Assembly (NCBI GenBank): GCA_040905565.1
Contig: JBBDRF010000009.1
Span: 1 to 57,555 of the forward strand
DNA from: Phycisphaeraceae bacterium
Lineage (GTDB): Bacteria > Planctomycetota > Phycisphaerae > Phycisphaerales > Zrk34
DNA: 57,555 bases
Reading direction: 5' to 3'
The notes beneath the pieces were generated by a model. The model saw only the letters and a program-made list of their open reading frames with translations. It was not told the DNA's origin and made no database searches. The stretch's first letter is position 1. The number at the start of each line of letters is the position of its first letter. Positions 6,252-51,099 of this stretch are shown here, piece by piece. The position numbers were made by a program, and so were the translations under genes.

Positions 6252-6256
6252 TTCAG

Positions 6257-7834
6257 TCAGTCCTCGATTTCGTTTAGGAGTTCCCCGTACTCACGAAACT
6301 CTTCCCGTTGTCGCAATTGGTCCAGAGCTTCCTGGGAGGTGCTTCCGCCTGCCCGACAGGCCTCGTAGGTGTGCTGCATGAGCCGCTTGACATCTGACTT
6401 CGTCCGGTCCTCGAATGGAAGTAGGTGAGTATCCGGCTTCTCAGCAGCATCAAGCCAGATTCGTTGAACAGGCACTGTCTCCTCAATCACCTGCAGCGCC
6501 GCTTCGGCCAACGACACTTTATCACCGGCCAAGCGCAGCATCTCAGACACAAGCGGGTGATTACGGTCAATGCGATACTTTGGCCGGCCCCCTGACGTGG
6601 TGGCGAGCCAAGGCCTGACCAAGTCAGGTCGCGCCGACCGAGGACCGTACTGTCCTCTATGGGCGAATACTTCACGCGCGAGCTGCCTGACGTCCTTGGC
6701 CAGAGAAAGCAGGCGACCACGAACGGCTGCCGGCGGTACAGCGACCGACTTCTTGACATCGATCTGCCATTCTTGGTCCATCGTGTTGGGGAGGTCGAGT
6801 TGGATGCGCGCTAGCTTGTAGTGTTCTTCTTTTGTCCACGGCTTGCCTTGGCCAAGCCCGAGCCAGTCACCCGCCACGAGCAGGCGCTCATTGCGATAGA
6901 CATAAAATCCCTGCTGGGCATTCCATCCTGCGGGGCCAGAGGCGTCACGGTGCAAATCATGTCCAAGCCTGTCCTTGTGAGGAAGCACAAAACCCTTGAC
7001 CGATATCATCCGATGTGCCCCCACCGCGATAGGTTCTGCTGGCGTAGCTTGGGTGGAGGGATGGTCTTGCAGAAAGGGGTTCCAAGGCTGTATCCGGTTC
7101 TCTTGATCCCTGCCGTTGATAAAAATGCGGATTCGGGACCGAGGGGATTGCAGGTATCGGTGGAAGACCATGCCGAGATACGCCCGTACCGCTTGGACAT
7201 GCCGATGGAAAGCCCTCTGGTCGGTCTCACTGCTGACGCTTGATTCACCTGTCACGCGATCCATTTGCTCCCACAGCACGACGGTGCCATCAGACGGTGC
7301 TGGAGACTGCAATCTGCCGTCTGAGTCCGCCGCTGCTTGCCGCAGCAACCGCCAACCATCCTGTTCGACATTGGATTGTGATGCAATATAGTCGAGATCC
7401 CATCTGCGGACAGAGGCTGAGCCACCATGAACCGAGCGGACGGTCATACGTCGGCACTGCGAGAAAGACGCAGTCTTCATTCCCAAACCGAAACGACCCA
7501 AGTCCCATGCTGATCGTTCGGCGAGCGGGCTCTTGCTTCCGAGCCGCATCGCCGCGACCAGTTCCGCCTCACTCATTCCCGAGCCGTCGTCGGCAACTGC
7601 TATCCAAGAGTCTTGGCCGCCCCAGTGAAAGGTCAGCCAGACATTGCTGGCTCCCGCAGAGATACTGTTATCGATCAGGTCCGCGATGGCCACTGGGAGA
7701 GAGTAGCCATATGCGCGCATGGACTCAATCATCGCCGAAGCCGATGGCGGCACGACGTCATAAGGCACGCTTTGGCAGCTCTCCGTCAAGACATTTATCC
7801 TTTCATTTGGGCACGTATTTGACCCGCGGGGCAT
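6257..7834 (-). CDS. GHKL/MORC-family ATPase (MzaB-like); start codon uncertain
   Basis: GYSL..AIADLIDNSI, DDG.GM, DLGRFGLGMKTASFSQ, QGFYVYRNERL, W.IDVKKS. The predicted promoter places the start at or downstream of 7834. Confidence 0.9.
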   Translation of the reverse strand: MPRGSNTCPNERINVLTESCQSVPYDVVPPSASAMIESMRAYGYSLPVAIADLIDNSISAGASNVWLTFHWGGQDSWIAVADDGSGMSEAELVAAMRLGSKSPLAERSAWDLGRFGLGMKTASFSQCRRMTVRSVHGGSASVRRWDLDYIASQSNVEQDGWRLLRQAAADSDGRLQSPAPSDGTVVLWEQMDRVTGESSVSSETDQRAFHRHVQAVRAYLGMVFHRYLQSPRSRIRIFINGRDQENRIQPWNPFLQDHPSTQATPAEPIAVGAHRMISVKGFVLPHKDRLGHDLHRDASGPAGWNAQQGFYVYRNERLLVAGDWLGLGQGKPWTKEEHYKLARIQLDLPNTMDQEWQIDVKKSVAVPPAAVRGRLLSLAKDVRQLAREVFAHRGQYGPRSARPDLVRPWLATTSGGRPKYRIDRNHPLVSEMLRLAGDKVSLAEAALQVIEETVPVQRIWLDAAEKPDTHLLPFEDRTKSDVKRLMQHTYEACRAGGSTSQEALDQLRQREEFREYGELLNEIED

Positions 7835-7847
7835 GTCCATGTAAGCT
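7819..7847 (+). promoter_or_regulatory. Sigma70-type promoter for the HTH/peptidase pair
   Basis: TTGACC(7819-7824)-N17-TAAGCT(7842-7847). Confidence 0.55.
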
Positions 7848-11173: not shown

Positions 11174-11390
11174 CGTGATATCAGCTATTTAGCCTCCCTT
11201 TTGGCGGCTGTTGCGGCCGCCACAATCTGCGACAACGCGACACCACGGGTTTCGGGCGAGGCCGGATCGGCTCATAACCGACCAGTCTCGACCGCACCTG
11301 TGAATCCACGCGACGTGGTGTCGCGGCACAGTCAACGATGTGCGTTCGGGCGACTGGCTCGGGAGCAGTATGACCGGCCTCGAGGGAATT

Positions 11391-11972
11391 ATGACCTCGA
11401 GCCACGAAATCGTTTCGAACGCGTACGCCCAATCCGTCATCCGCATCAAAGCTCACCAGTTGTGTCGGCGGGCCGACTTCAGCCGCTCGGATATGGAGGA
11501 TCTCCGCCAGGAGATGTGGCTGTATCTCGTGAAGGTGGCGCGTCTGTTCAATCCCGACCGCGCTTGCCTGGAGACCTTCATCGCCCGTGCGATCGACTCG
11601 TGCGTGGCGATCATTCTTCGTGATCGGCAGCGTGAGAAGCGCCGCGCGGGCCTTGATGCCACTTCGCTTGAGGGCACGCTCGCAGGCGGAGCCGAGGAGC
11701 GGGGGCCACTTTCGCGCCACCTTGTCCCAACGGACCAGAGCCGCCGCACGGGCAACGTGCCAGTGGATCCGGTTGAGCGCCTCGAAACAGTCGAAGCCGT
11801 GTCCGTGGCGATGGCGAAGCTGCCGCCGAAGGTGCGGTCGATTGCCAAGCGGCTCATGCACGCGAGTCCGACTGCCGTTGCGAAGGAGATGGGCATCTCG
11901 CGCCGGCAGGTCCGCAACGCCATCGATGAAATGGAGGGCGTATTCCGCGATGCCGGGCTCGGCAGGGACTGA
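11391..11972 (+). CDS. Phage-encoded ECF-like sigma-70 factor
   Basis: Region-2-like D.EDL.QE..L....FNPDR....TF and region-4-like LP.........S...VA..MGISR. Confidence 0.8.
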   Translation: MTSSHEIVSNAYAQSVIRIKAHQLCRRADFSRSDMEDLRQEMWLYLVKVARLFNPDRACLETFIARAIDSCVAIILRDRQREKRRAGLDATSLEGTLAGGAEERGPLSRHLVPTDQSRRTGNVPVDPVERLETVEAVSVAMAKLPPKVRSIAKRLMHASPTAVAKEMGISRRQVRNAIDEMEGVFRDAGLGRD

Positions 11973-11975
11973 GTC

Positions 11976-12005
11976 CGGACACCTGGCTCGCCACCGGCAT
12001 ACGTA
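11976..12005 (+). promoter_or_regulatory. Putative phage-sigma promoter, copy 1 (replication operon)
   Basis: CGGACACC-N11-CGGCATACGTA; same spacing as the copy at 28812. Confidence 0.65.
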
Positions 12006-12047
12006 ACCAGACAGCGGCATACCGCCGCGGCTTTGGAGGCACCTGGT

Positions 12048-24758: not shown

Positions 24759-24983
24759 GTGGGCAATGACAGGCAAAATTCGGTCCAGAACGGCGGCGCG
24801 GCACCGCTGAACCCCATGGCGATGCAGGTCAGCGACGCAGCCCGCCTGCTGGGCGTACCGGAGATGACCGTGCGGCAGCATGTGCAGGCCGGCGCTCCTA
24901 CAGCGGCGGACGGCACGATGAATCTGGTGCACTACGCGGCGTGGTTGAACGTCGAGCTCAAGCGGAGGATGGATGGCGATTGA
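24759..24983 (+). CDS. Small HTH protein, terminase-small-subunit (Nu1)-like
   Basis: DAARLLGV...TV......GAP pattern; overlaps the terminase start. Confidence 0.65.
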   Translation: MGNDRQNSVQNGGAAPLNPMAMQVSDAARLLGVPEMTVRQHVQAGAPTAADGTMNLVHYAAWLNVELKRRMDGD

Positions 24984-27306
24984 CCCGGCCCAACTCAGCC
25001 CGACGCAGCTGGTGCGGCTGCTGAACTCGACGCCGCTGGGACCGGTGATCAACGCTGCGGCGCTGCATCGGCAGCGGAACGAGGCAGGGCTGCGCATCGC
25101 ATCGGATGGTGACGGCAAACGCATTCACCTGGTGAAGTACGTCAAGTGGCTGGTGCGTGAACTGGAGAAGCCCCCGCCGGCTCCCTCTGATTACACCGAT
25201 CGCCTGCGACGCGATCTGCAGCGCAAGCTGGAGGCCTCCCGCCAGGGGCGCGACATCGGTCCCGTTCCCGACGTGGTCGATATGCAGCGGCGGCAACGAT
25301 GCGAGGGTTCGTTCCGCGACTTCTGCGAGATTTACTTCCCCGCGGCCTTCAGTCTGCCGTGGTCGCAGGACCACCTGCGCATCATCGAGAAGATCGAGCG
25401 GGCGGTGCTCGAGGGTGGGTTGTTTGCGTTCGCCATGCCGCGCGGCAGCGGGAAGACCACGCTCTGCCAGGCGGCGGGCATGTGGGCGATCCTGTGCGGC
25501 TACCGCGAATACATCTGTCTGATCGGCTCGGCGGAGGACCAGGCGAAGACGATGCTGGAGAGCATCAAGCGGGAGATGCTCGGGAATCCGCTGCTGCTGG
25601 AGGATTTTCCCGAGACGATCTTCCCGATCCGCAAGCTGGAGAACAACGCGCGTAAGCAGGCGGGCCAGCTCTGCGATGGCGAGCCGACGTACATCACGTG
25701 GGCGGCGGATAAGCTGGTGATGCCGACGATGGGCGCCCAGCAGCTTCCGATGGCGCTGCAGCGACGTGAACTGGCAAGCAGCCCGTCGTCCGGGTCGATC
25801 ATCACCGTCGCCGGCCTCGATTCCAACATCCGCGGGCAGCATCACACCAAGATGGACGGGACCGTCGTGCGGCCGTCGCTGGTAATCCTTGACGATCCGC
25901 AGACACGCCAGAGTGCGGCCTCGACCACGCAGACGCGGCATCGGCTCTCGATTCTCAATGGCGATGTGCTGGGCATGGCCGGGCCGAACGTGAAGATGGC
26001 GGGGTTTATGACGTGCACCAAGATCCACCACGACGACCTGGCCGACCAAATCCTCGACCGTCAGAAGAATCCTGAATGGCAGGGTGAGTGCACGAAGCTT
26101 GTGTACTCATTCCCCACCGACGAAAAACGCTGGGATCGTTACGCCCAATTGCGTGCCGAGGGTTTGCGTGAAGGCGATGGCGGCAAGCGGGCCACCGAAC
26201 TCTACCGACGCGATCGGGAGCAGATGGATGACGGCGCCGTTGTCGCCTGGCCGGAGCGGTACAACGCGGATGAACTCAGCGCGCTCCAGCACGCGATGAA
26301 TCTGAAGCTGCGGGATGAGGATGCCTTCTTCGCTGAATATCAGAACGAACCCGCCACGGCTCAGCTCGATGAGGATGTGCTGACGCCCGATGAGGTGGCG
26401 GAGCGTGTCAGCGGCCGGCCTCGCATCGAGGTGCCCAAGCCCGCGACGAGCGTCACGGCATTCATCGACGTTCAGGAGAAGATGCTCTTTTACACCGTGT
26501 GTGCGTGGGAGAGCGATTTCACCGGCCACGTAATCGATTACGGCACGCTGCCGGATCAGAAGCGGCGGTACTTCACGCTTCGCGACACGACAAAGACGCT
26601 CGCGGCGACCTACAGCGGTGGCGGCATCGAAGGTGCGATCCAAGCAGGCCTCGAGGAACTCGTCGGGCGGCTGCTCGATCGGCAGTGGGAGGTGATGGGC
26701 GACGGCGGGGTGATGCGCATCGAGCGGTTGCTGATCGACGCTGGCTACCTGCCCGGAATCGTCGCGAACGTCTGTCACAAGCTCGGTGCCGTGGCGATGC
26801 CGAGCAAGGGCGTGGGGATCCGGGCGGGCAACAAGCCGATGAGCGCCTACCGCCGCAAGCCCGGCGAACGGCATGGCCATCACTGGTATGTCCCCAACGT
26901 CAGCCGCACGGCAGAACTTCGGCACGTCATGATCGATACGAACTACTGGAAGTCGTTCGTTCATGCGCGGTTTGCGACGGCTCCCGGTGACCGCGGCGCT
27001 CTCACGCTTTTCGGCCGGTCACCCGCGGAGCACCGCCTGTTCGCCGATCACATCGCCGCCAGCGAGACGTGGACGCGCACGGAAGGCCATGGGCGGCTGG
27101 TGCAGGAATGGTCGATCCGCCCGAGCAAACCCGACAACCACTGGCTCGACTGCCTGGTTGGCGCGGCCGTGGCCGCGTCGATGTGCGGCGTGCGGTTTGG
27201 GGTAGAGCCTGCCGAGGCGGAAACACAGCGGCCCATCCGGCTTTCGGCGTTGAAGCAGCAAAGAAATTTCCGGGCAAAACAATCCGAAGGTAGTATTCGA
27301 CCATGA
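24973..27306 (+). CDS. Terminase large subunit (GpA-like nuclease C-terminus)
   Basis: AMPRGSGKTT Walker A, ILDDPQT Walker B, AFIDVQ, LIDAG, DNHWLDC. Confidence 0.9.
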   Translation: MAIDPAQLSPTQLVRLLNSTPLGPVINAAALHRQRNEAGLRIASDGDGKRIHLVKYVKWLVRELEKPPPAPSDYTDRLRRDLQRKLEASRQGRDIGPVPDVVDMQRRQRCEGSFRDFCEIYFPAAFSLPWSQDHLRIIEKIERAVLEGGLFAFAMPRGSGKTTLCQAAGMWAILCGYREYICLIGSAEDQAKTMLESIKREMLGNPLLLEDFPETIFPIRKLENNARKQAGQLCDGEPTYITWAADKLVMPTMGAQQLPMALQRRELASSPSSGSIITVAGLDSNIRGQHHTKMDGTVVRPSLVILDDPQTRQSAASTTQTRHRLSILNGDVLGMAGPNVKMAGFMTCTKIHHDDLADQILDRQKNPEWQGECTKLVYSFPTDEKRWDRYAQLRAEGLREGDGGKRATELYRRDREQMDDGAVVAWPERYNADELSALQHAMNLKLRDEDAFFAEYQNEPATAQLDEDVLTPDEVAERVSGRPRIEVPKPATSVTAFIDVQEKMLFYTVCAWESDFTGHVIDYGTLPDQKRRYFTLRDTTKTLAATYSGGGIEGAIQAGLEELVGRLLDRQWEVMGDGGVMRIERLLIDAGYLPGIVANVCHKLGAVAMPSKGVGIRAGNKPMSAYRRKPGERHGHHWYVPNVSRTAELRHVMIDTNYWKSFVHARFATAPGDRGALTLFGRSPAEHRLFADHIAASETWTRTEGHGRLVQEWSIRPSKPDNHWLDCLVGAAVAASMCGVRFGVEPAEAETQRPIRLSALKQQRNFRAKQSEGSIRP

Positions 27307-28178
27307 TGTTTAAGCCGAAGAACCTGCGTCGCACGCTACTCAACCTCCAATTCGACATGGCGACGGCCCGTGGGATCGAAGGGCTGCTGATGCTGTGGGA
27401 TGTGATGTTCTTATCGCATCCCATCGTCGACAATGAGATCGGTAGCGACCCGCCCATCGCACGCGACGAATGGGAACGGCTCTACGCCGACCAATCCGCA
27501 TTTGATCAGGCAATGCCTGTCCCGCCGGAGCGAATAGAAAAGATCAACGCCCAAGTAAGGATGGCGGACAGCTTCTCCCCGCTGGCCAAAGCCGCAGAGT
27601 TCGCTCCGGACAGCGACCTTCAACAGACTCCGTTCGCGCTATTTTTTCGCCGGGTGCTGGGCCCCTACATCGCTTGGCATGTGACGGAGCCGTGGGCCGA
27701 CTTTCGCGCCGCCTGCGCCGGGGACGATAAGGCGTTGTGTCGTTTGATAGAGATCGACCCGTCCGTTCAGCGCATGAGTTCCATCCAGCAGGCGTGGGCT
27801 TCACAGCTGAAGGCGGACCGCAATCTTCGCGAACGCGTGCGCGATGCAGCGAAGCGGAAGCTCCGTGACAAAGTGGCCGGCGTGGAGTCCCGTGAGATCT
27901 TTGAGGACGCCACCCGCAAGCGCATCAAGCTGAGACTCGCCGCCGAACTGCAGCGTTGGATCGAGCGTCGGTTCCTCGAACATCCTGAGATCGCACCAAA
28001 AAGGATTCGGCGACAGAAGAGGAAACCCAACGAAAGTCAATTACGTCAAATCTTCAATGCTTATGCCGAAGACACGCGAGGTACCCCCAAAGACGCGGAT
28101 CTGCCGGAAAGTGACGGGACCTTCCGAAAGGACATCGCCAACTATCGCAATCGGCTTGAGAAGGCCCTCCACCACTGA
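27303..28178 (+). CDS. Hypothetical protein (moron between terminase and head genes)
   Basis: 291-aa ORF, ATGA-coupled to terminase; no motif recognised. Confidence 0.65.
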   Translation: MMFKPKNLRRTLLNLQFDMATARGIEGLLMLWDVMFLSHPIVDNEIGSDPPIARDEWERLYADQSAFDQAMPVPPERIEKINAQVRMADSFSPLAKAAEFAPDSDLQQTPFALFFRRVLGPYIAWHVTEPWADFRAACAGDDKALCRLIEIDPSVQRMSSIQQAWASQLKADRNLRERVRDAAKRKLRDKVAGVESREIFEDATRKRIKLRLAAELQRWIERRFLEHPEIAPKRIRRQKRKPNESQLRQIFNAYAEDTRGTPKDADLPESDGTFRKDIANYRNRLEKALHH

Positions 28179-28303
28179 TAGCGGCCCGAACAGAAATTTG
28201 TTCCGACTGGGCTCTCTGCACGTTGCCATAATTCGACGGTGTCGATCGGATGTCCGATCGACGATCCCTCCAAGTTGGGCTCACGCCCAGAAAGGACACT
28301 GTC

Positions 28304-28450
28304 ATGGCGAAGAAATACCCATCCAGCAAGGACGCGGCTCGCATCCAGAGCACTCAGAAAAAGGCCGGACAACCCACCGGCAAAAAGAGCTTTCCTGCCC
28401 GCGTTCAAGGGGCGGCGGACAAGGGCTCCAAGGGAGGTGGGAAACGGTGA
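28304..28450 (+). CDS. 48-aa basic hydrophilic peptide, SMP/LEA-like
   Basis: AAGGA RBS; DAARIQS......KSF.AR.Q.AADK pattern. Confidence 0.6.
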   Translation: MAKKYPSSKDAARIQSTQKKAGQPTGKKSFPARVQGAADKGSKGGGKR

Positions 28451-28538
28451 TCAGCGGCTGACTCGAACCGATCGCCAACTGGCACTGTTTGTTACCCATT
28501 GCTTTGCGCACTTAACGTTTTGTTAAGGGAGATTCCAA

Positions 28539-28694
28539 ATGCCTACGCAGGACAACGACAACCATTCCGATCAACTGAACCCGACCAGCGATGCATACTG
28601 GCAGTCACGTGGATGGGAAGATCGCCCGGAAGATTGGGAAGATCGCATCAAAACAGGCGACACGTTGCTGCCAGATGCGACGAAGGATGAATAA
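28539..28694 (+). CDS. 51-aa acidic peptide not in the ORF track
   Basis: AAGGGAG RBS; MPTQDNDNHSDQLNPTSDAYWQSRGWEDRPEDWEDRIKTGDTLLPDATKDE. Confidence 0.65.
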   Translation: MPTQDNDNHSDQLNPTSDAYWQSRGWEDRPEDWEDRIKTGDTLLPDATKDE

Positions 28695-28750
28695 TCGCCG
28701 ATAGGCTTTAGCCGTTCACGGCTGGCCTGACACCAACAACTTTGTTTCTC

Positions 28751-28783
28751 AAGGCCATGCGGGCAATGCTCGCATGGCCTTTT
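28751..28783 (+). terminator. Intrinsic terminator before the head-operon promoter
   Basis: AAGGCCATGCGGGC-aat-GCTCGCATGGCCTT hairpin running into Ts. Confidence 0.7.
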
Positions 28784-28811: not shown

Positions 28812-28841
28812 CGGACACCCCCGCCTCCTGCGGCATACATA
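28812..28841 (+). promoter_or_regulatory. Putative phage-sigma promoter, copy 2 (tRNA/head operon)
   Basis: CGGACACC-N11-CGGCATACATA, 14 nt upstream of the tRNA. Confidence 0.65.
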
Positions 28842-28855
28842 CCCGGTAGCCACCA

Positions 28856-28928
28856 AGCGGGATGGAGCAGTGGTCAGCTCGCCGGGTTCATGCCCCGGAG
28901 GTCGCAGGTTCAAATCCTGCTCCCGCGA
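28856..28928 (+). tRNA. tRNA-Met(CAT), initiator type, no encoded CCA
   Basis: Acceptor AGCGGGA/TCCCGCG with 1:72 mismatch; D stem GAGC/GCTC (A11:U24); anticodon stem CCGGG/CCCGG with loop TTCATGC; T arm GCAGG-TTCAAAT-CCTGC. Confidence 0.88.
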
Positions 28929-28930
28929 TT

Positions 28931-29125
28931 ATGACCGACAACCTGGACAACACGATCCGCGAGAACGCCGAGGGGCCGGCCGAAGCTTCTGTGGATGGCC
29001 AGACCGTCCGCCAGCACAGCCTGCGTGACCAGATCAACGTCGATCGTTATCTGGCATCGAAGCGGGCGGCGCGAGCTGGGCTCGGGGTCCGGCTGACGAA
29101 GGTGATTCCGCCTGGGGCGGTGTGA
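28931..29125 (+). CDS. gpW-like head-tail joining protein
   Basis: Small ORF before the portal with SVDGQTV...SL pattern. Confidence 0.7.
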   Translation: MTDNLDNTIRENAEGPAEASVDGQTVRQHSLRDQINVDRYLASKRAARAGLGVRLTKVIPPGAV

Positions 29126-29140
29126 GGTGCACAGAACCGA

Positions 29141-30664
29141 ATGATCAACTGGATCAGGAACATTCTGGCACAGCGCCGCTCCGGTAGGCCCGCGGAGAAC
29201 GTCAACCGCCCTGCGTTTCGCTTTGGCGGTTCGCCGCTGCGGCCACTGCACGCCCGCTACGACGCGGCGCAGACGACGGATGAGAATCGTCGGCACTGGG
29301 CGGCGGCCGATCAGCTCTCCGCCAACGCCGCCGCGAATCCGCAGGTGCGTCGCATTCTTCGCAGCCGGGCTCGCTATGAGGTGGCGAACAACAGCTACGC
29401 CCGTGGCATTGTCCTGACGCTCGCGAACTATGTGGTGGGCACGGGGCCGCGGCTGCAGATGCTTACCGGCGAACCCGCCGTCGATCGCCTCGTTGAACGT
29501 GAGTTCGGCCGCTGGGCGAAGGCCGTGGGGCTGGCGCACAAACTGCGGACGATGCGGATCGGTGAGGCGGAGTCTGGCGAAGTGTTCGCTGTCATGGCAA
29601 CCAACCCGCAGGTCGACGCCCCCGTGCAGCTAGATCTGAAGCTGGTCGAAGCTGACCAGGTGACCACTCCGTTCGGGCTTCACAGCGACGAGCAGGTCAC
29701 CGACGGCATCATCTACGATGAGTTCGGCAACCCCACCAGTTATTTCGTGCTCAAGCACCATCCCGGCGATCGCGACGCCTGGCGGGCCGGGCGCATGGCT
29801 TACGACCAGCTTCCGGCGGAGTCCGTGCTCCATCTTTACCGTGTCGATCGCCCCGGTCAGGGGCGCGGCATCCCGGAGATCACGCCCGCACTGCCGCTGT
29901 TTGCGATGCTGCGTGATTACGGGCTGGCGGTATTGCAGGCGGCTCAACAGGCGGCTTTGCCCGGTGGGGTGATCTATACAGACGCGCCCGCTGACACGGA
30001 GGCGGCGAAGGTCGAGCCGATGGACAGCGTCGAGATGGACCGGGGCATGTGGCTGACGATGCCGTACGGCTGGAAGGTCGGGCAGGTCCGGGCCGAGCAG
30101 CCGACGACGATGCACGATCAGTTCACGCGGACGATCCTTCAGGAGATCGCACGCTGCCTGAACATGCCGTTCAACATCGCTGCGGGCAACAGCGCCGGCT
30201 ACAACTTCGCCTCGGGCCGCCTCGATCACCAGTCTTTCTACAAGGCGATTCGCATCGATCAAGCCTTCATCGGCGACACCGTCCTCGACCGCGTGCTTCG
30301 GGCGTGGCTGGACGAAGCGGTGCTGGTGGAGGGTTACCTCCCGCAGGCGTTGAGGCAGATCGACACGCAGCTGCCGCACCAGTGGTTCTGGGACGGGCTT
30401 GAGCATGTGGATCCCGCCAAGGAAGCCAACGCCACGGCGACAAAGCTCGCGAGTCACACCACCAACCTCGCCATCGAGTACGCCCGGCAGGGCCTGGACT
30501 GGGAGGCGGAGCTTCGGCAGAAGGCCAAGGAGAAGCAGCTGATGCAGCGCCTGGGCCTCGATGACACGGAAGGGGAGGCGGCAGTGGGGGGGCAGCAGGG
30601 GGACGATGAGGAAACAGTGCAGGAAACGGTGGGGGGGGCGGAGGAGATCCGGGCCAATGACTGA
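29141..30664 (+). CDS. Portal protein, lambda family
   Basis: LR.RAR....NN..A.G, R.GQ.RG.P, N.ASGR, VDP.KE. Confidence 0.92.
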   Translation: MINWIRNILAQRRSGRPAENVNRPAFRFGGSPLRPLHARYDAAQTTDENRRHWAAADQLSANAAANPQVRRILRSRARYEVANNSYARGIVLTLANYVVGTGPRLQMLTGEPAVDRLVEREFGRWAKAVGLAHKLRTMRIGEAESGEVFAVMATNPQVDAPVQLDLKLVEADQVTTPFGLHSDEQVTDGIIYDEFGNPTSYFVLKHHPGDRDAWRAGRMAYDQLPAESVLHLYRVDRPGQGRGIPEITPALPLFAMLRDYGLAVLQAAQQAALPGGVIYTDAPADTEAAKVEPMDSVEMDRGMWLTMPYGWKVGQVRAEQPTTMHDQFTRTILQEIARCLNMPFNIAAGNSAGYNFASGRLDHQSFYKAIRIDQAFIGDTVLDRVLRAWLDEAVLVEGYLPQALRQIDTQLPHQWFWDGLEHVDPAKEANATATKLASHTTNLAIEYARQGLDWEAELRQKAKEKQLMQRLGLDDTEGEAAVGGQQGDDEETVQETVGGAEEIRAND

Positions 30665-32741
30665 GCAGAACAAAGGGCATCTTGAACTGATCTGCGCCGC
30701 AGGCGGTATCACCATCGAAGCGGCGACGCCGATCACGGACGGCAGCGATGGGGAAGCCCTGCCGCGTTTCAGTATGGTCGCGTACTCGGGTGAGCCGATG
30801 CGTGTCCAAGGCTGGCGCCACCCCGTGGTCGTGGATCTCGAAGGCCTCCGCATCGAGAGCCAGCGCAAGCCGATCCGCTTCGCTCACAGCGCTTACCAGG
30901 GCGTGGGCCATTCAGAGCGGATCGCCGTGGAGGGCAATCAGCTCATCGCAGAGGGGGTGGTCTCTCGCGACACGCCGGCTGCCCGCGAGGTCGTCTCCAG
31001 CGGCAAGCGGGGCTTTCCGTGGCAGGCGTCGATCGGAGCGGGGGTGGAACAGGCTGAGTTCGTGAAGGCGGGGGCGAATGTCACGGTCAACGGGCGGACG
31101 TTTGAGGGGCCGCTGTTCGTGGCACGCCACACGGTGCTGGGGGAGATCAGCTTCGTGGACTCAGGTGCGGACCAGAACACTTCAGCGCGGATTGCCGCGC
31201 AGGTACAGGAACAGCAGACGATGAATGATGAGAAGACGCAGACGGAGCAGAACGCCACCACGGGCACGACCACCGCCCCTGCAACTGAGGTGACGGGCGA
31301 CGCAACGCCGCCGGCAAGTGAGAAGAACACGAACACCTCCACTGCCACGCCGGCGGCAGTCAATGCATCCAGCGCCACCACCACTTCACCCGGCGCAGCC
31401 AGCGACGAAGCCGTGCAGCGGATGCGGCAGGAGGTGGCCGCCGAGAGCCATCGCATCGCGGAGGTACGCCGGATCTGCGCCGGCCGGCACCCCGACATCG
31501 AGACCCAGGCGATCGGTGAAGGCTGGGACGCGACACGCTGCGAACTGGAAGTGCTGCGCGCGAGCCGCCCCAAGGTGACGGGCGCTCCGGCGATCCACAG
31601 CGTCGAGAACAACGTGGACGGCCAGGTGCTCGAAGCGGCGTGCATGCTGACGGCGAAGTTCAGCAAGCCCGAGGATCTGTACGAGGACAAGACGCTGGAG
31701 GCAGCCAGCAAGCGGTTCCGCGGCGGGATCGGCCTTCAGGAACTGCTGCTCGAAGCCGCATGGGCGAACGGCTACACGGGCCGCAACTTCCGCGCTTCGC
31801 GGGATGTCTTCCGCTACGCCTTCGGGCATCCGAGCATTCAGGCGTCCAGCTTCAGCACCATCGACATCGTCGGCGTCCTCTCCAACGTCGCCAACAAGTT
31901 CCTGCTCGAAGGCTTCTTCAGCGTCGAACGCGTCTGGCGGAACATCTGCTCCGTGCGGAACGTCAACGACTTCAAGACGGTCACGTCGTACCGGCTGATC
32001 GGCAAGGATCAGTACGAGAAGGTTGCGCCGGGCGGCGAGCTCAAGCACGGCACGCTTGGTGAGGAGAGCTATGCGAACAAGGCTGACACGTACGGCCTCC
32101 TGCTCGCTGTCGACCGGCGTGATGTGATCAACGACGACCTCGGAGCCATCACCACGGCTCCACGCAAACTCGGCCGCGGCTCGGGCCTGAAGATCAACGA
32201 CGTGTTCTGGACGACCTTCCTGGACAACGCGGACTTCTTCAAGGCCGCGAACAAGAACTACCTCGATGGCGCGGACACGAAGCTGAGCATCGACGGGCTG
32301 ACGAAGGCCGAGGTCGCCTTCATGGACCAGGTCGATTCCGACGGCAAGCCGATCGGCATCATGCCGGCGATGGCGCTCGTCCCAACCAGCCTCAGTGCCA
32401 TCGGCACCACACTCGGCCGGTCGCTGGAGGTCCGCGATCCGGGCAGTTCGGCGAAGTACCCCGTCGCCAACCCCCACGCCGGCAAGTTCCGCGTCGAGGT
32501 CAGCCGCTACCTGGCCAACACGCAGTACGCCGGTGCCAGCGATAAGGCGTGGTACCTGCTGGCGGAGCCGGGCGATCTGTCGGTGATCGAGGTCGCGTTC
32601 CTCAACGGCCAGGAGAGCCCGACCATTGAAACCGCCGACGCGGACTTCAACGTGCTGGGCATCCAGATGCGCGGCTACCACGACTTCGGCGTCGCGTTGC
32701 AGGAACCGCGTGGCGGCGTCAAGAGCAAGGGCGAGGCCTAA
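30657..32741 (+). CDS. Prohead protease-major capsid fusion
   Basis: N-terminal H....VG, QASIG and EISFV..GAD protease motifs; Thr/Ala-rich scaffold linker; capsid-like C-terminus (V.DFK, GE.K.G, D.G). Confidence 0.88.
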   Translation: MTEQNKGHLELICAAGGITIEAATPITDGSDGEALPRFSMVAYSGEPMRVQGWRHPVVVDLEGLRIESQRKPIRFAHSAYQGVGHSERIAVEGNQLIAEGVVSRDTPAAREVVSSGKRGFPWQASIGAGVEQAEFVKAGANVTVNGRTFEGPLFVARHTVLGEISFVDSGADQNTSARIAAQVQEQQTMNDEKTQTEQNATTGTTTAPATEVTGDATPPASEKNTNTSTATPAAVNASSATTTSPGAASDEAVQRMRQEVAAESHRIAEVRRICAGRHPDIETQAIGEGWDATRCELEVLRASRPKVTGAPAIHSVENNVDGQVLEAACMLTAKFSKPEDLYEDKTLEAASKRFRGGIGLQELLLEAAWANGYTGRNFRASRDVFRYAFGHPSIQASSFSTIDIVGVLSNVANKFLLEGFFSVERVWRNICSVRNVNDFKTVTSYRLIGKDQYEKVAPGGELKHGTLGEESYANKADTYGLLLAVDRRDVINDDLGAITTAPRKLGRGSGLKINDVFWTTFLDNADFFKAANKNYLDGADTKLSIDGLTKAEVAFMDQVDSDGKPIGIMPAMALVPTSLSAIGTTLGRSLEVRDPGSSAKYPVANPHAGKFRVEVSRYLANTQYAGASDKAWYLLAEPGDLSVIEVAFLNGQESPTIETADADFNVLGIQMRGYHDFGVALQEPRGGVKSKGEA

Positions 32742-45443: not shown

Positions 45444-45526
45444 GTAGGGTGGGTAGAGCGAAGCGAAACCCACCACGGAGCTGAGCGGGACGATGAGCAA
45501 GCAACTCGTCGTCCCGCTTTCTTGTT
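45444..45526 (+). repeat. GTAG-type REP-like palindrome plus hairpin, copy 1
   Basis: GTAGGGTGGGTAGAGCG..GCGAAACCCACC, then GCGGGACGATGAG/CTCGTCGTCCCGC and Ts. Confidence 0.75.
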
Positions 45527-46901
45527 GGACCACAACGGCGACGCGACGTGGGACCTTGATCAAACCCGCACCCACACGCCCGCCAATGAAATCGACACAA
45601 TCTCCGGCACATGGCTTGACCCCGCCCACGGTGCATCGGGTAACATGATGGGAATGCCCAAGCCGCTTGATCCGACTGAAAGCTTCACCGCTGTCGACGA
45701 TGCGTGGAACCGCCTCGTCGAACTCTCCGAGGCAGGCGAAGCAAGCGGTAGCGGTAGCGCCGAGGGTGGTGTGATCGCCGAGTACGCCTTCGACGCCACC
45801 GGCCGCCGCATCGTCGCCAAAACCTACACCGACGAAGTCCTCGACCAGACGCGACACTTCTACTATTCACAGGCTCACCAGATCCTCGAAGAACGCGTCG
45901 ACGGCACAAGCGATAGCCACCTGGACGTCCAATACGTCTGGGGCAACCGCTACATCGACGACCTAATCGCCCGCCACGACGGCACCAATTGGCTCTTCGC
46001 CCTGCAAGACGCCAACTTCCGCGTCGTCGCCATTGTCAGCGAAGCCGGCAGCGTCGGCGAACGCTACGACTACAACCTCTACGGAAAGCGAATCGTCCTC
46101 AACGACGACTATACCACTCATGCCAACCCCGAAGCAGGCGGCTACGCCTTCGCCATCGGTCACCAGGGCCTCCACCACGACGTCGAATCAGGCCTGGTCT
46201 ACAACCGGGCGAGGATGCTGCACCCCGTGCTGGGAAGATTCATCCAACGCGATCCGCTGGACTATGTGGATGGCATGAGCGTATATGCGGCGTATCATGT
46301 CATGGGAGGCCAATTAGACCCATGGGGATTATGGTCCATCATGCGGTGGCTTTATACAGGAAATGGGAATGCCTCTGATGAACTTTACGAAGTGGCATGC
46401 GAGGACGCTCGAGATTGGCTCTTCACTCGTTCGCCGGTGAGAGGTGGATACGTAGGGGCCGGTCTCAGCGGCAAACGACAAGGACGCGGAGCGCCGGGCG
46501 GCTATGTGGGTGCGACCGGCGGGTGGAGTATAGATCGTGGGCTTGGCGCGACCGTTGGTGGAGGAATTGGGAGGCAAGGTCGAATGCGTGATCCTCGTAC
46601 CGGCCAATTTGCTAGTGGTTGGGGTGGAATAGGAGGCGGTATCGGATATTCGGAAGGCGGCGGCTGGGAAGCATCCGGAGGGCTTTATGGAGGAAGCACT
46701 CAAAATGGCCGCACACGTAAAGGGGGCGGCCATGGTGGCCTGTCTGGAAATGGCACTATTAACGTAGGCTTGAACTATAGGTTTGTGAATGTCGGGCTCA
46801 CAGTTAATCCTTCACGCATTTTGAACCTGTTTGGGGCGGAGGAGTATTTTGGATGGGGGGAAGACAGTTGCCCATCAGAGGAAGATGATCCATGCGACTA
46901 G
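45525..46901 (+). CDS. Orphan Rhs module 2 with Gly-rich tip; translation start unclear
   Basis: Rhs core motifs and DPWGL, followed by a Gly-rich C-terminal domain. Confidence 0.85.
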   Translation: MDHNGDATWDLDQTRTHTPANEIDTISGTWLDPAHGASGNMMGMPKPLDPTESFTAVDDAWNRLVELSEAGEASGSGSAEGGVIAEYAFDATGRRIVAKTYTDEVLDQTRHFYYSQAHQILEERVDGTSDSHLDVQYVWGNRYIDDLIARHDGTNWLFALQDANFRVVAIVSEAGSVGERYDYNLYGKRIVLNDDYTTHANPEAGGYAFAIGHQGLHHDVESGLVYNRARMLHPVLGRFIQRDPLDYVDGMSVYAAYHVMGGQLDPWGLWSIMRWLYTGNGNASDELYEVACEDARDWLFTRSPVRGGYVGAGLSGKRQGRGAPGGYVGATGGWSIDRGLGATVGGGIGRQGRMRDPRTGQFASGWGGIGGGIGYSEGGGWEASGGLYGGSTQNGRTRKGGGHGGLSGNGTINVGLNYRFVNVGLTVNPSRILNLFGAEEYFGWGEDSCPSEEDDPCD

Positions 46902-47236
46902 TAGCAATAGTCATGAGGATCGCTCCCCAGGCGTTTGACAAAATGTCGCCCGCCCTGCTGCGGCGGGCGACATTTCCTGTGGCCGCATTAGTGATATCCG
47001 TCGCAATGATGATTGCGCCTGCAGTTGTTGACTCCATGTCTTGGGGTGGACATTATGGCGAAACCACTTTCGGACAACAGATACCTGATTGGGTCCCCAA
47101 AGTATTGTACTTCTTTGCAGCATCTTCGATTATGGCCCTGTCGTTGTATTGCATCATCCAGCTGTTCGTTCGCCTTGAAAAAGTGAGGCAACGAAGAGAT
47201 CGAACGAGCCTCCATCACAACGATACTAGGAACTGA
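46892..47236 (+). CDS. Two-TM membrane protein, putative immunity 2
   Basis: Overlaps the Rhs2 end; two hydrophobic segments. Confidence 0.6.
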   Translation: MRLVAIVMRIAPQAFDKMSPALLRRATFPVAALVISVAMMIAPAVVDSMSWGGHYGETTFGQQIPDWVPKVLYFFAASSIMALSLYCIIQLFVRLEKVRQRRDRTSLHHNDTRN

Positions 47237-47261
47237 TCAATGAGTATGCTCAAAGCAGCGA

Positions 47262-47344
47262 GTAGGGTGGGTAGAGCGTGAGCGAAACCCACCACGGGAT
47301 CAGGCGGGACGATGAGCAAATGACTCACGTCCCGCTTTCCTGTT
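47262..47344 (+). repeat. GTAG-type REP-like palindrome plus hairpin, copy 2
   Basis: Near copy of 45444-45526. Confidence 0.75.
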
Positions 47345-47408
47345 AGGTAGGATTCCTGTTCTTCACGCGCGCGACATCGGGCCTCACGCGTCGTGACGCC
47401 CTCGCAGA

Positions 47409-48845
47409 TTGGACGACAACGGCGACGCGACGTGGGAGCTCGATCGAACCCGCACCCACACGCCCGCCAACGAGATCGACACAATCTCGGGCACATGGCT
47501 TGACCCCGCACACGATGCTTCTGGTAACATGGTGGGCATGCCCAAGCCGCTTGATCCGACCCAAGGCTACACCGCTGTCTACGATGCGTGGAATCGTCTC
47601 GTCGAACTCACCGACGACAACGGCAGCAGCAGCGGAGGCGGGCAGCTTGTCGCGGAATATGAGTGGGACGGCATTGGCCGCCGCATCGTGGCGACGAACT
47701 ATGATGATGGCCTCCTCGAGGAAACCCGGCACTTCTACTATTCGCAGGCTCACCAGATCCTCGAAGAACGCGTCGACGGCACGGCTGATAGCGACATGGA
47801 TCTGCAGTACGTCTGGGGTGCTCAGTACGTCGACGAACTGATCTGCCGCGACCGCCCCGGCGACGCCAGCAGCAGCTCAAGCTCCGCCGACGCCGAACGC
47901 ATCTACGTCACCTACGACCCCAGCTACCGCATCACCGCCCTCGTCGACGGCAACAAAAACGTCCTCGAACGCTACCGCTACTCCCCCTACGGCGAGCGTA
48001 CGGTCCTCAACCCCGACTGGACCGTCCACACCGACCCCATCAACGGCAGCTACAACTTCCGCATCGGCCACCAGGGCCTCCGCCACGATGAGACGGGACT
48101 CGTCTACAACCGCGCAAGAATGCTGCACGTCGGAATGGGGAGGTTCGCGCAAAGGGATCCGATGGACCATAATTCACCGAGCGGTGGTTACCACGATGGT
48201 ATGAGTCAGTACGAGTATCAGGGGGCATCTCCGATCCAACGTCTCGATCCAAGGGGGCTTGATCTCGGTGATACGGTTGACACCTTATTCGAACTTGCAG
48301 CTGAAGTCTACGAAGAGTACGAGGATGTCGCGCCTCGGGTAAGATTCGTGGAGGACGTCGTCGGAGTCTTGCGCGACCCTCACGATTTGGTGAAACAGGA
48401 GGCGCTCGCGACCAAATACCTCGCCGACTTGATGAAAAAGGCACTGACGACAGTTGCCCCCAAGGTCGCCGGTCGGCTACTGTACGGATTCGACATCGGT
48501 GTATCGATTGGCGAAACCTTTCGTAAGCCACTGCAGTCTAGCCTTGACCAGATTACGGACAACAAACGGTGCGCACAGGCAGCAGCAAAAGCAACTCACG
48601 ACAATATCCCTGCGAATCAAGGCTACTGGTCAGTCAAGACAACCAAAACAAGTGCCGAAATGCCAGCATTCTCTACAAATGAGGGCAGCGGTGCTGGTTG
48701 CGCCCGTACTTACTACATTCGGAAGGACCAACGGTCTGCGATTGGCGGGATTTTCTGGGGTCCCGATTACACTTGGAAAAAATGTTGCTGTTCGAATCAT
48801 GTGGCACAGGCAGAATATACGGGGTCCGCAGATGCAAGTTTGTAA
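47409..48845 (+). CDS. Orphan Rhs module 3; translation start unclear
   Basis: Rhs core motifs and DPRGL; distinct tip with Cys cluster (KCCCS). Confidence 0.85.
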   Translation: MDDNGDATWELDRTRTHTPANEIDTISGTWLDPAHDASGNMVGMPKPLDPTQGYTAVYDAWNRLVELTDDNGSSSGGGQLVAEYEWDGIGRRIVATNYDDGLLEETRHFYYSQAHQILEERVDGTADSDMDLQYVWGAQYVDELICRDRPGDASSSSSSADAERIYVTYDPSYRITALVDGNKNVLERYRYSPYGERTVLNPDWTVHTDPINGSYNFRIGHQGLRHDETGLVYNRARMLHVGMGRFAQRDPMDHNSPSGGYHDGMSQYEYQGASPIQRLDPRGLDLGDTVDTLFELAAEVYEEYEDVAPRVRFVEDVVGVLRDPHDLVKQEALATKYLADLMKKALTTVAPKVAGRLLYGFDIGVSIGETFRKPLQSSLDQITDNKRCAQAAAKATHDNIPANQGYWSVKTTKTSAEMPAFSTNEGSGAGCARTYYIRKDQRSAIGGIFWGPDYTWKKCCCSNHVAQAEYTGSADASL

Positions 48846-49287
48846 GGTTCAGTTGAGGCAAGCGTTGGCAATGGCAACATTCATTGTCGCAGTGATCCTA
48901 TACACGCCAGGTTGCGCAGATACTGAGCAGTCCGAAGGCGATTTTGTAAAAGCCGGTGACGTCATCGGGGTGTATGAAGAGATCATGAATCGTACGGCTA
49001 TCCATCCCGACGTGCCCGAGTCGGTAGATGACTCTAATCGCGTTCCGGTTCACTTTTACCATACTTATAAGGAAATGTCTGAGCGTTTTGCGCAAGTCCA
49101 TGACTCCGAAGGATTGGCGGGCGATGAGAAGCGTCGGATCTCGCGTCTGGTCACCCTCTCTGGCGAGATAGCAGAACAGTGGGGCGCGATTGCAGGCGCG
49201 TCAAACGATGAGATGGTCGTACGTGAGCGTGAGCGACTTCGCCAGCTGCTCGAAGAACTCGTTGCAACACTCCAGGAGATCAAGTGA
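48832..49287 (+). CDS. Probable lipoprotein, putative immunity 3
   Basis: Overlaps the Rhs3 end; hydrophobic leader ending TPGC (non-canonical lipobox). Confidence 0.6.
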   Translation: MQVCKVQLRQALAMATFIVAVILYTPGCADTEQSEGDFVKAGDVIGVYEEIMNRTAIHPDVPESVDDSNRVPVHFYHTYKEMSERFAQVHDSEGLAGDEKRRISRLVTLSGEIAEQWGAIAGASNDEMVVRERERLRQLLEELVATLQEIK

Positions 49288-49292
49288 TTCAT

Positions 49293-49757
49293 ATGAATAG
49301 GGCGAGCGTATTAATCGCGGTCATAGTGCTCTCCGCTTCCGCGATAGGGTGCGACGGACATGAGGTTCACGACCAACGCCTGAACGATGAACGCCAGAAG
49401 GTTGGCCTTCGACTCATGCCGAGCAATTTCTATAAAATTGTCGACAACGGGCGGTCGACGCACTGGGGAGACGGTGTGGGGTGGCTTAATCGCCCGCCGC
49501 CCCGGTACCACGGCAAAGTCTTCCTTTTTGACGAATCGCATGCACGCCTGCTTGAGGAAACGGATGTATACGACTCAGGCAAACGATTCGGTCCTGGGTC
49601 GCGCAGTCAGGAAGTTCTGCATATTACCTTTTCTTGGAAACTCCACCGTGAGGGACAGCAAGTATGGCGATATACGCACGCTTCTCAAAGCGGAACACAT
49701 GACATCTCCGAAGCTGACGCCCACTCACTTCTCACTGAGTGGGGATTGACACGCTGA
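49293..49757 (+). CDS. Lipoprotein, putative orphan immunity
   Basis: MNRASVLIAVIVLSASAIGC signal and lipobox. Confidence 0.65.
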   Translation: MNRASVLIAVIVLSASAIGCDGHEVHDQRLNDERQKVGLRLMPSNFYKIVDNGRSTHWGDGVGWLNRPPPRYHGKVFLFDESHARLLEETDVYDSGKRFGPGSRSQEVLHITFSWKLHREGQQVWRYTHASQSGTHDISEADAHSLLTEWGLTR

Positions 49758-49864
49758 CCTGAGCGAGCCGCAGTGGGACTTGATGTAAGCACGCTACTTC
49801 AGGACGATGGAACGAGCCGGGCACCGCACGGCGACCATGCTTCCCCCACCCCCCGGAGTGCTGC

Positions 49865-49910
49865 CGCACCCACGGGCAACGAAATCGACACAATCTCCGG
49901 CACGTGGCTT
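49865..49910 (+). pseudogene. Short Rhs junction remnant
   Basis: Encodes NEIDTISGTWL, as at the start of Rhs modules 2-4. Confidence 0.75.
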
Positions 49911-50007
49911 GGCGCATGGGCTGGCGCGCAAGCGTGCCTTACGCTGTGGGCACGAGGAAACGCAGTGTACAGACTGAAGTGAATTACGACACCAGGAGCC
50001 CTTGATA

Positions 50008-51051
50008 ATGTCACGAACACCAGTATTACTACTAGTTGCGATAATCGCGAGTATCTACACTGTGCCACACGCGCTTGCCGAACAACCCGGGCATCACGAC
50101 GACCCACCGGGGGGCGTGGAGTATCGGCCGCCCACGCATGCAGTGCCTTTACACGACATTTTCACGCCTGGCGAAACTTATAGTCTCGGAGATATCGGCG
50201 ATCTTTTGGGAGGCAAGCTGGATGTCCCTGAAACTATGGAGATGTTTTATATGTTCTTTTGTCGTGAGCATCAGGTGGACATTCCGCCCACGCTCTTGGA
50301 TGAAGACATGCGCGTGTGGAATATTTTAGCAATAGCCGCCTCGAGTTCTGACATGTTAGTTACAAAATTATCAGGCCTTTGGGAAAAACCTGACACGGAG
50401 ACGGTTCTACGCCGGCACAACCTTGAGGGGATTGGCCTGATGGAAGTCATATACATCAAGCCAGCTGATGACGCCGAGATTGTCAAACTGGAACTGCGCC
50501 CTTATTTTGTTCGTCACGACGTTGACATAAACTTCCCGCGTGCTCTAACCCTTGAGAGCCTGCAGGTAAACGGCGATAGCGTAGAGGTGGCAGGTGATGT
50601 GGAGCCTTGGCGCCTTCAGCTCCCGAACCAGGTGCTCGGGGAAGGAGTCACGCTCAGCGGGGTTGTGCGAGCATCACGCGTGACGCGTCGACTGATGAGG
50701 ATCACCCTGCACGACCTATCAAAAGAATTGAACACGCACGGCGACGATGGCGCTACGATTCACCTGCAGGTGGTTGAGCCACGTCGTGCTCTGCTGCAGA
50801 TTACCGCGACAGATCAGGATCTTCCTGAGTATTCAGTTAAAGGGGCAATGGCGTTCGGCCCAGATGGTGAGTCGATGGGGGGGGTGGGAATGCGGGCACG
50901 GGCGACGCCGCGAAAACTAGAGGTTGAGGTCGGGCCTTGGCGAGACGAAGCTGATCGTCAGGCGAGTTCGATCGCGGTTCTTGTAGCCGAAACTGAGGAG
51001 CGGCGGATACCATTCGAATTCGAAATTCGGGCTCAAGAGTTCTCAGAGTAG
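50008..51051 (+). CDS. Exported protein, putative orphan immunity
   Basis: AGGAG RBS; signal peptide ending ALA-E. Confidence 0.65.
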   Translation: MSRTPVLLLVAIIASIYTVPHALAEQPGHHDDPPGGVEYRPPTHAVPLHDIFTPGETYSLGDIGDLLGGKLDVPETMEMFYMFFCREHQVDIPPTLLDEDMRVWNILAIAASSSDMLVTKLSGLWEKPDTETVLRRHNLEGIGLMEVIYIKPADDAEIVKLELRPYFVRHDVDINFPRALTLESLQVNGDSVEVAGDVEPWRLQLPNQVLGEGVTLSGVVRASRVTRRLMRITLHDLSKELNTHGDDGATIHLQVVEPRRALLQITATDQDLPEYSVKGAMAFGPDGESMGGVGMRARATPRKLEVEVGPWRDEADRQASSIAVLVAETEERRIPFEFEIRAQEFSE

Positions 51052-51099
51052 GATTGGGTAACCGAAGGAGCAATGTCACTCCCAGTCCCGTAGCTCCGA

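Follow-up and report, generated by a model that had tools for sequence, protein, structure and literature searches.

A CCA-less, initiator-type tRNA gene in a prophage of a Phycisphaeraceae bacterium ends 2 nt before the ATG of the first head gene. Comparisons with related loci and with the processing enzymes of the host make tRNA punctuation the probable explanation, in which excision of the tRNA would release a leaderless head mRNA; the tRNA itself has kept its initiator determinants. The tRNA would then be both cargo and a processing signal. Throughout, "the window" denotes the whole 57,555-nt stretch of DNA that was analyzed.

Organization of the prophage and its tRNA-head unit

Pfam and PHROG matches to a terminase large subunit, a portal, a protease-capsid fusion, and tail genes showed that the window contains a lambda-like prophage. 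Its named homologs and the related loci indicate a host in the Planctomycetota, probably in the Phycisphaerae. The genes of the tRNA-head unit and its surroundings lie on the forward strand. A gpA-type terminase large subunit gene (24973..27306; phrog_38, PF20454) lies upstream of the unit. Between it and the tRNA is a lower-GC insert (27303..28694) of three ORFs encoding 291 aa (27303-28178), 48 aa (28304-28450), and 51 aa (28539-28694). No Pfam, PHROG, or NCBIfam family was found for these ORFs, and the Atlas neighbors of the 291-aa protein lack names. The insert is followed by a terminator-like hairpin with a U-tract (28751..28781), a promoter-like motif common to relatives (28826..28845) whose 3' end lies about 10 nt upstream of the tRNA, the tRNA itself (28856..28928), a 2-nt TT trailer (28929..28930; tRNA positions 74 and 75), and the head gene (28931..29125). 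A lambda-family portal gene (29141..30664; PF05136, phrog_21) and a protease-major capsid fusion gene with a provisional start codon (30561..32741; phrog_4523, PF25209) come next. PADLOC identified the defense-system genes MzaB, MzaC, MzaD, and MzaE on the reverse strand (364-7840), where the prophage has its left end. At the right end (45522-52556), three ORFs (45522, 47409, and 51054) share near-identical starting repeats and resemble Rhs-type C-terminal cassettes.

ARAGORN and Rfam (RF00005, 64.2 bits, E = 1e-11) detected tRNA-Met(CAT) as the sole tRNA of the window. Together with the sequence, they confirmed the order given by the first-pass annotation, namely, a tRNA without CCA, TT, and then the ATG of a conserved 64-aa gene. 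The isolated tRNA sequence folds into a cloverleaf (-32.8 kcal/mol), with the CAU anticodon in a 7-nt loop. For the uncut precursor, ViennaRNA returned a non-cloverleaf fold in which the D-loop pairs with the start region, a result of little weight because tertiary contacts and modifications are ignored. The initiator hallmarks named by the first-pass annotation are present, that is, a 1:72 mismatch (A1:G72), A11:U24, and three G:C pairs in the anticodon stem (G29-G31:C39-C41). A purine 11:pyrimidine 24 pair is a feature of bacterial initiator tRNA-fMet. Along with G2:C71, C3:G70, A73, the CAU anticodon, and G30:C40, the mismatch and the three G:C pairs of the window tRNA resemble the pattern of bacterial initiator tRNA-fMet (PMC5389676). 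The anticodon loop is atypical, with U32/G37/C38 in the prophage tRNA versus C32/A37/A38 in the host's own initiator (contig C15); the latter loop is usual for initiators but no strict determinant. By its determinants, the prophage tRNA is of the initiator type, for which charging, formylation, and P-site use are the predicted functions.

The ORF that begins at ATG 28931 encodes 64 aa and ends at 29125. No Shine-Dalgarno (SD)-like word was found 4 to 18 nt upstream of this ATG, in agreement with the earlier remark that the layout leaves no room for one. The gene was annotated as gpW-like, and its position accords with that name: it is a small gene between the terminase large subunit and a lambda-family portal, the place of lambda gene W, as expected of gpW. 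In 139 of the 154 clusters examined, the portal gene comes next after the head gene. The protein had no Pfam, PHROG, NCBIfam, or PDB sequence match. Its structural model (pLDDT 65) has a helix-hairpin-helix order, which is the topology of gpW as well, and a fold search gave a best Z of 3.0 and no gpW row. Weak Atlas leads pointed to DUF6148 (0.81) and gpW clusters (0.77), both under 0.9. The name gpW, for which the sequence and fold searches brought no confirmation, thus rests mainly on gene order plus the predicted helix-hairpin-helix. In one database protein (P0007), an N-terminal extension translated from the tRNA frame is a gene-calling artifact caused by this layout.

The first-pass annotation also placed a promoter before the tRNA, a claim that did not hold as worded: no sigma-70 consensus promoter adjoins the tRNA. 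The single sigma-70-like site (28668-28695; 9/12 consensus positions, with 0.8 such sites expected by chance) lies upstream of the hairpin at 28751-28781, and there is no room for a promoter between the tRNA and the head gene. A motif profile built from relatives, with the window excluded, scored 8.2 bits at 28826-28845 (rank 21 of 115,072 positions), and the estimated chance of an equally good site in the 160 nt searched was about 3 in 100. These values lend modest support to this motif as a candidate promoter. An ECF-like sigma factor gene (TIGR02937) lies at 11340-11972, and the best profile match of the window (9.8 bits) is found directly behind it at 11990-12009. Because this site resembles the one at 28826, a phage sigma factor may read both.

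Many relatives carry a conserved structured leader RNA in the 95 to 150 nt that precede the tRNA (L133, L136, L141, L020, L140, and others). Besides a long enclosing stem, it has a small hairpin whose loop is conserved and a covarying terminator-like hairpin of 12 bp that carries a U-tract. This leader was present in 46/78 tRNA-bearing versus 3/71 tRNA-less loci, and no Rfam family was found for it in the 11 loci searched. It may act as a terminator or antiterminator in the late leader. The window retains only a similar hairpin, the one at 28751-28781. A small gene encoding a two-CxxC zinc finger lies between the terminase and head genes in 58 of 125 loci (L022, L053, L057, L052, L061, and L129 among them). 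A palindrome follows it; this motif occurs in 84 relatives and, in the majority of loci where both motifs are present, is placed 72 to 73 nt upstream of the leader start. The zinc-finger gene and palindrome are likely a late activator and its site, and Ogr of P2 is a comparable late activator. The palindrome was not found in the window at the distance seen in relatives (best nearby score, 1.8 bits), and the zinc-finger gene was not found in the window's host genome.

Spacer classes and tRNA constraint among relatives

Related Planctomycetota prophage loci from genomes and metagenomes were gathered by protein homology and by a DNA pattern in which a variable gap separates the T-arm of a tRNA from a conserved stretch of the head gene. 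This yielded at least 438 loci, at least 255 of them with the head gene and at least 149 with a T-arm within 90 nt. The 149 T-arm loci, including the window, formed 81 clusters at 90% identity, and spacers were counted from base 73 to the start codon. Among the matches listed, the spacer was 2 nt in 23 clusters, 3 nt in 3, and 4 nt in 2; it was 10 to 24 nt in 52 clusters and 61 nt in one. Spacers of 0 to 1 or 5 to 9 nt were not found among these 81 clusters. Because any spacer length between -2 and 28 nt was within reach of the scan pattern (offset 96 in 67/76 rows), the missing lengths are not a sampling effect. An SD-like word was found upstream of 0/28 genes with short spacers (2 to 4 nt) versus 49/53 with long spacers (≥10 nt). 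Judged from these counts, the bimodal layout is not chance.

The 2-nt spacing recurs on several branches, which bears out the conservation that the first-pass annotation proposed to look for. In a portal tree of 47 rows (17 short versus 30 long), spacer state changed 8 times, and at least 5 of the changes were forced by well-supported branches. Grouping the short state as one clade was rejected (AU test, P = 5.2e-5, with three long-branch, long-spacer rows omitted). A portal tree of 119 rows, kept from 154 by omitting rows without 280 aa of portal, gave 10 changes, 7 of them forced by well-supported branches. Recombination between modules could produce the same scatter of the short state. A selection of loci made by protein only contained 103/112 loci without a tRNA and 9 with one, and only 2 of these had the short spacer. 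Since an SD and a longer spacer are retained in two-thirds of the relatives with the tRNA, and the tRNA is missing before most homologous genes, the coupling of tRNA and gene is optional, not the rule. In INPHARED, 83 phage records matched the tRNA part only, and 0/83 spanned the tRNA-gene junction.

The two spacer classes also differ at the junction. U75 is present in 28/28 short versus 37/53 long clusters (P = 0.0007, an overstatement, as kin were treated as independent), and CCA is encoded in 0/28 short versus 8/53 long clusters. All 28 short-spacer representatives start with ATG versus 56/70 tRNA-less genes (P = 0.009, likewise overstated by counting kin as independent; three tRNA-less rows without a clear start were left out). 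The comparison of ATG starts with the long class (50/53) gave P = 0.55, and one member of a short-spacer cluster (L223) has a GTG start. The gene start was AT-richer in the short class when rows were compared (P < 1e-4), a difference not upheld by independent pairs (P of about 0.5, 5 pairs). Upon inspection, we ruled out that the 2-nt state arose through a TG-microhomology deletion, which would leave a 0-nt spacer; none was seen.

The tRNA could be parsed in 79 of the 81 clusters, two incomplete rows being dropped. G2:C71 was kept in 78/79 and C3:G70 in 79/79; position 1:72 lacked a Watson-Crick pair in 74/79, A73 was present in 74/79, and base 11 was a purine in 62/79. Among the 70 intact CAU arms, all had G30, which formed G30:C40 in 69 and a G:U pair in one. 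The outer anticodon-stem pairs varied, with 29:41 kept in 39/70 and 31:39 in 47/70. The three G:C pairs that the first-pass annotation listed as an initiator hallmark therefore describe the window well and the family poorly, all three being present in only 17/70 intact arms. Because the remaining pattern (G30:C40, the 1:72 mismatch, G2:C71, C3:G70, and A73) matters for initiator function in Escherichia coli (PMC5389676), most of the relatives' copies are probably working initiators.

By eye, CAU has been lost in 7/79 clusters, four with short spacers (L020, L221, L268, and L384) and three with long spacers (L043, L193, and L357). Two further tRNAs missed by the parser retain CAT within irregular arms. 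The acceptor arm and the T arm were each intact in 78/79, including where the anticodon is lost. The tRNA is thus under two kinds of constraint, one on the initiator determinants and one on the acceptor and T arms, which are the parts read by tRNase Z. Archaeal tRNase Z enzymes take precursors without an anticodon arm (PMC7479834). The earlier suggestion that the tRNA supplies initiator during virion synthesis fits the mostly kept determinants, with the qualification that such supply is not always needed, given the lost anticodons.

The best-surviving alternative, which we regard as unlikely, is that the tRNA is cargo and nothing else. It would be an extra initiator, possibly resistant to the host's anticodon nucleases; the uncut transcript would be translated independently of an SD, and the short spacer would reflect compaction to the minimal trailer of the host. 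The selection on initiator determinants is as this alternative expects. It leaves unexplained, however, the gaps at 0 to 1 and 5 to 9 nt and the spacers of exactly 2 nt in 23/28 short clusters on several branches, as well as the 4/28 short-class tRNAs that have lost CAU with the spacing nonetheless kept. Additionally, the 30S subunit requires unstructured RNA upstream of the AUG, which argues against translation of the uncut transcript. The anticodon loop can be read in its favor: A37-A38 is kept in only 12/70 intact arms, loop changes occur in phage tRNAs and have been linked with anticodon nucleases (PMC10264068), and the host has one PIN-domain match. The loss of A37-A38 may accordingly reflect escape from such nucleases. 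According to the same source, phages for the most part do not carry a tRNA-fMet gene where this tRNA is a VapC target, which speaks against cargo as the whole explanation. A missing SD in itself says little, because 24/73 tRNA-less clusters also lack an SD-like word and Planctomycetes have few SD genes (PMC5397173); both figures keep the cargo-only alternative in play. The cargo and processing roles are compatible, and both can hold.

Host tRNA processing and the predicted cut

The trailer behind the prophage tRNA is ordinary for this host, because TT is its usual tRNA trailer, present in 33 of 42 host tRNA genes scored. U75 was found in 41/42 and an encoded CCA in 1/42, and none of the 42 has an ATG directly behind the trailer (this count omits four genes that lie at a contig end or have no T-loop match). 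The host genome encodes RNase P RNA, RNase E/G, and one nucleotidyltransferase of the CCA/poly(A) family; no match to RNase J was found in this genome, which is 98% complete. No host protein scored above the cutoff of the NCBIfam RNase Z models. However, a 306-aa protein (G000:C40:1258-2178) matched RNase ZS1 (7xgt; E = 1e-46) and, less closely, the Thermotoga maritima tRNase Z (1ww1; E = 4e-15), so that the plant enzyme is its nearer relation. Variants of the EGxSxxG-like, KL, xExT, and HxH motifs could be recognized by eye in the protein and where it aligns with RNase ZS1, and these are the motifs of TM-type tRNase Z (PMC3161902). By similarity, the protein is therefore a tRNase Z of the TM/plant type, with predicted activity.

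Enzymes of this type were found in 35/201 genomes of the phylum (at a threshold of E = 1e-25) and in 24/25 genome records holding these prophage loci, although two of the 25 records are one genome, one has its locus absent from the spacer table, and one bin looks mislabeled. All 11 distinct host genomes with short spacers carry the enzyme, and the single record without a match holds a CCA-encoding tRNA. This link between enzyme and phage is confounded by kinship, as 13/13 same-class genomes among the matches listed carry the enzyme.

For most tRNase Z enzymes the cut falls behind base 73, and for a spinach fraction behind C74 (PMC3161902). The wild-type T. maritima enzyme, assayed with one such substrate, cuts a CCA-less precursor after base 75 (74GU|G76; PMC1540738, Table 1). 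Extrapolating from this one enzyme and one substrate, we predict a cut in the window between 28930 and 28931, or else after 28928. A cut after base 75 would fall directly before the AUG and would explain the peak at 2 nt. It would also explain the absence of 0- to 1-nt spacers, because their start codon would be destroyed. A strict cut after base 75 would leave a leader of 1 to 2 nt in the five short-class clusters with 3- to 4-nt spacers. After a cut behind base 73, the window's head mRNA would carry a 2-nt leader. The first-pass annotation expected an almost leaderless mRNA; with the cut after base 75 it may be fully leaderless.

The same enzymology could be read the opposite way, with processing as a silencer. 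A cut after position 76, which is the A of the AUG, would destroy the start codon, or the 5' monophosphate would trigger decay by RNase E, and the first head gene would be damped. We judge this improbable. A76 is present in 24/28 short clusters, the T. maritima enzyme cuts a CCA-bearing precursor behind the CCA (PMC1540738), and RNase E/G is available in the host. However, the non-CCA trailer is cut after 75 by that same enzyme, and silencing by the cut would leave the gene without a good translation route, since the uncut precursor has no SD, yet the reading frame and first Met are conserved.

Still less probable is that the tRNA stands before the gene by chance, either as the remnant of an integration site or as a host tRNA copy in decay. 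The lower-GC insert directly upstream, the damaged anticodon arms of some relatives, and the patchy presence of the tRNA on the tree (24 gains or losses) might suggest such an origin. Against it, the whole tRNA is conserved with compensatory stem changes across 79 clusters and occupies the same place with or without inserts. Moreover, its identity to the initiator gene of the host, which lies on another contig, is only 79%, and no long duplicate of the tRNA stretch was found elsewhere in the genome. A gene start at the in-frame ATG inside the tRNA (28862), from which the frame is open in the window (87 aa), or at a point further downstream is scarcely credible, as 27 homologs align from the Met at 28931, this frame is interrupted within the tRNA of the short-class relatives L020 and L047, no SD precedes 28862, and no alternative in-frame start was found within the first 20 codons of the head gene.

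Proposed mechanism and biological implications

Under the preferred reading, tRNA punctuation, the late transcript would start just upstream of the tRNA, at the motif at 28826, and would run into the head genes. Host RNase P would cut the 5' side of the tRNA and the TM/plant-type tRNase Z its 3' side; both enzymes are present in the host, and their action on this transcript is predicted. With the 2-nt spacer, the second cut, most likely after base 75, would yield a 5'-phosphate mRNA starting at the AUG or no more than 2 nt from it. This mRNA would be translated by leaderless (70S) initiation, which is promoted by a 5' phosphate and by fMet-tRNA and lowered by distance to the 5' end (reviewed in PMC9031893). 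In the uncut precursor, the AUG abuts the acceptor helix without an SD and would therefore be nearly silent, so that tRNA maturation would license synthesis of the first head protein. The freed tRNA would be trimmed and receive CCA, adding initiator tRNA where the anticodon is intact. Related phages with a 10- to 24-nt spacer and an SD would reach the same end, with repeated changes of state among lineages. The first-pass idea that processing releases the head mRNA is therefore upheld in part: the recurrent 2-nt spacing, the absence of 5- to 9-nt spacers, and the host enzymes speak for it, and the optional coupling limits its reach.

Several known systems share parts of this layout. In the E. 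coli units metY-nusA-infB and thrU-tyrU-glyT-thrT-tufB, tRNA and mRNA are cotranscribed, and a tRNA, even an initiator, heads a protein operon as in the prophage. In both, the genes behind the tRNA are served by a leader and SD of their own, so these units resemble the long-spacer class, not the layout of the window. In Stx phages, the late-operon tRNAs ileZ-argN-argO likewise stand at the front of the late transcript, but they are elongators. tRNA punctuation itself is a textbook feature of mitochondria. In animal mitochondria, RNase P and ELAC2/RNase Z release leaderless mRNAs (bioRxiv 10.64898/2026.07.30.741833), and processing can be required for translation (CYB), as proposed for the prophage. 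The two share a tRNA fold directly before the start codon, an excision that would make the mRNA 5' end, and initiation without an SD. They differ in that the present case, known from sequence, is a bacterial prophage with one junction, a short TM-type host tRNase Z, and an SD-led state in relatives. Temperate phages with a CAU tRNA-Met/fMet gene include the phiLM21-like prophages of Sinorhizobium (PMC12429752), for which the available text does not describe an abutting start codon. In haloarchaea, tRNA-like elements in an engineered construct served as RNase P and tRNase Z cut signals (PMC4946936). There, too, the precise end of an adjacent RNA is defined by a tRNA fold; the neighbor is a noncoding RNA, unlike the start codon of the prophage. 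A literature search, which covered few subscription journals, found no leaderless mRNA, in phages or in bacteria, that is generated by tRNase Z, and the available portions of PMC4681348, PMC3848588, and PMC4633059 describe none. What is new is that the layout occurs in a phage, that one gene has two interchangeable states, that the anticodon is dispensable, and that the register fits a TM-type enzyme.

More tentatively, the initiator tRNA could serve the head transcript of Phycisphaerae-type prophages as a cleavable 5' cap. The host TM-type tRNase Z would cut after base 75, the AUG would repeatedly have been set at base 76, one cut would yield a leaderless mRNA together with fMet-tRNA, and head completion would be tied to host tRNA maturation. 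If this is true, virion synthesis may continue under a defense that eliminates the initiator tRNA of the host or abolishes SD-led initiation. The spacer register would then predict a +2 cut when these bacteria mature CCA-less tRNAs, a precise cut-site prediction for an unstudied bacterial tRNase Z. Regulation of a single leaderless mRNA has been named as an open question (review PMC9031893), and two natural states on one gene, SD led and cut led, with several switches between them, provide a built-in comparison for it. Phage tRNAs may thus have a role beyond decoding.
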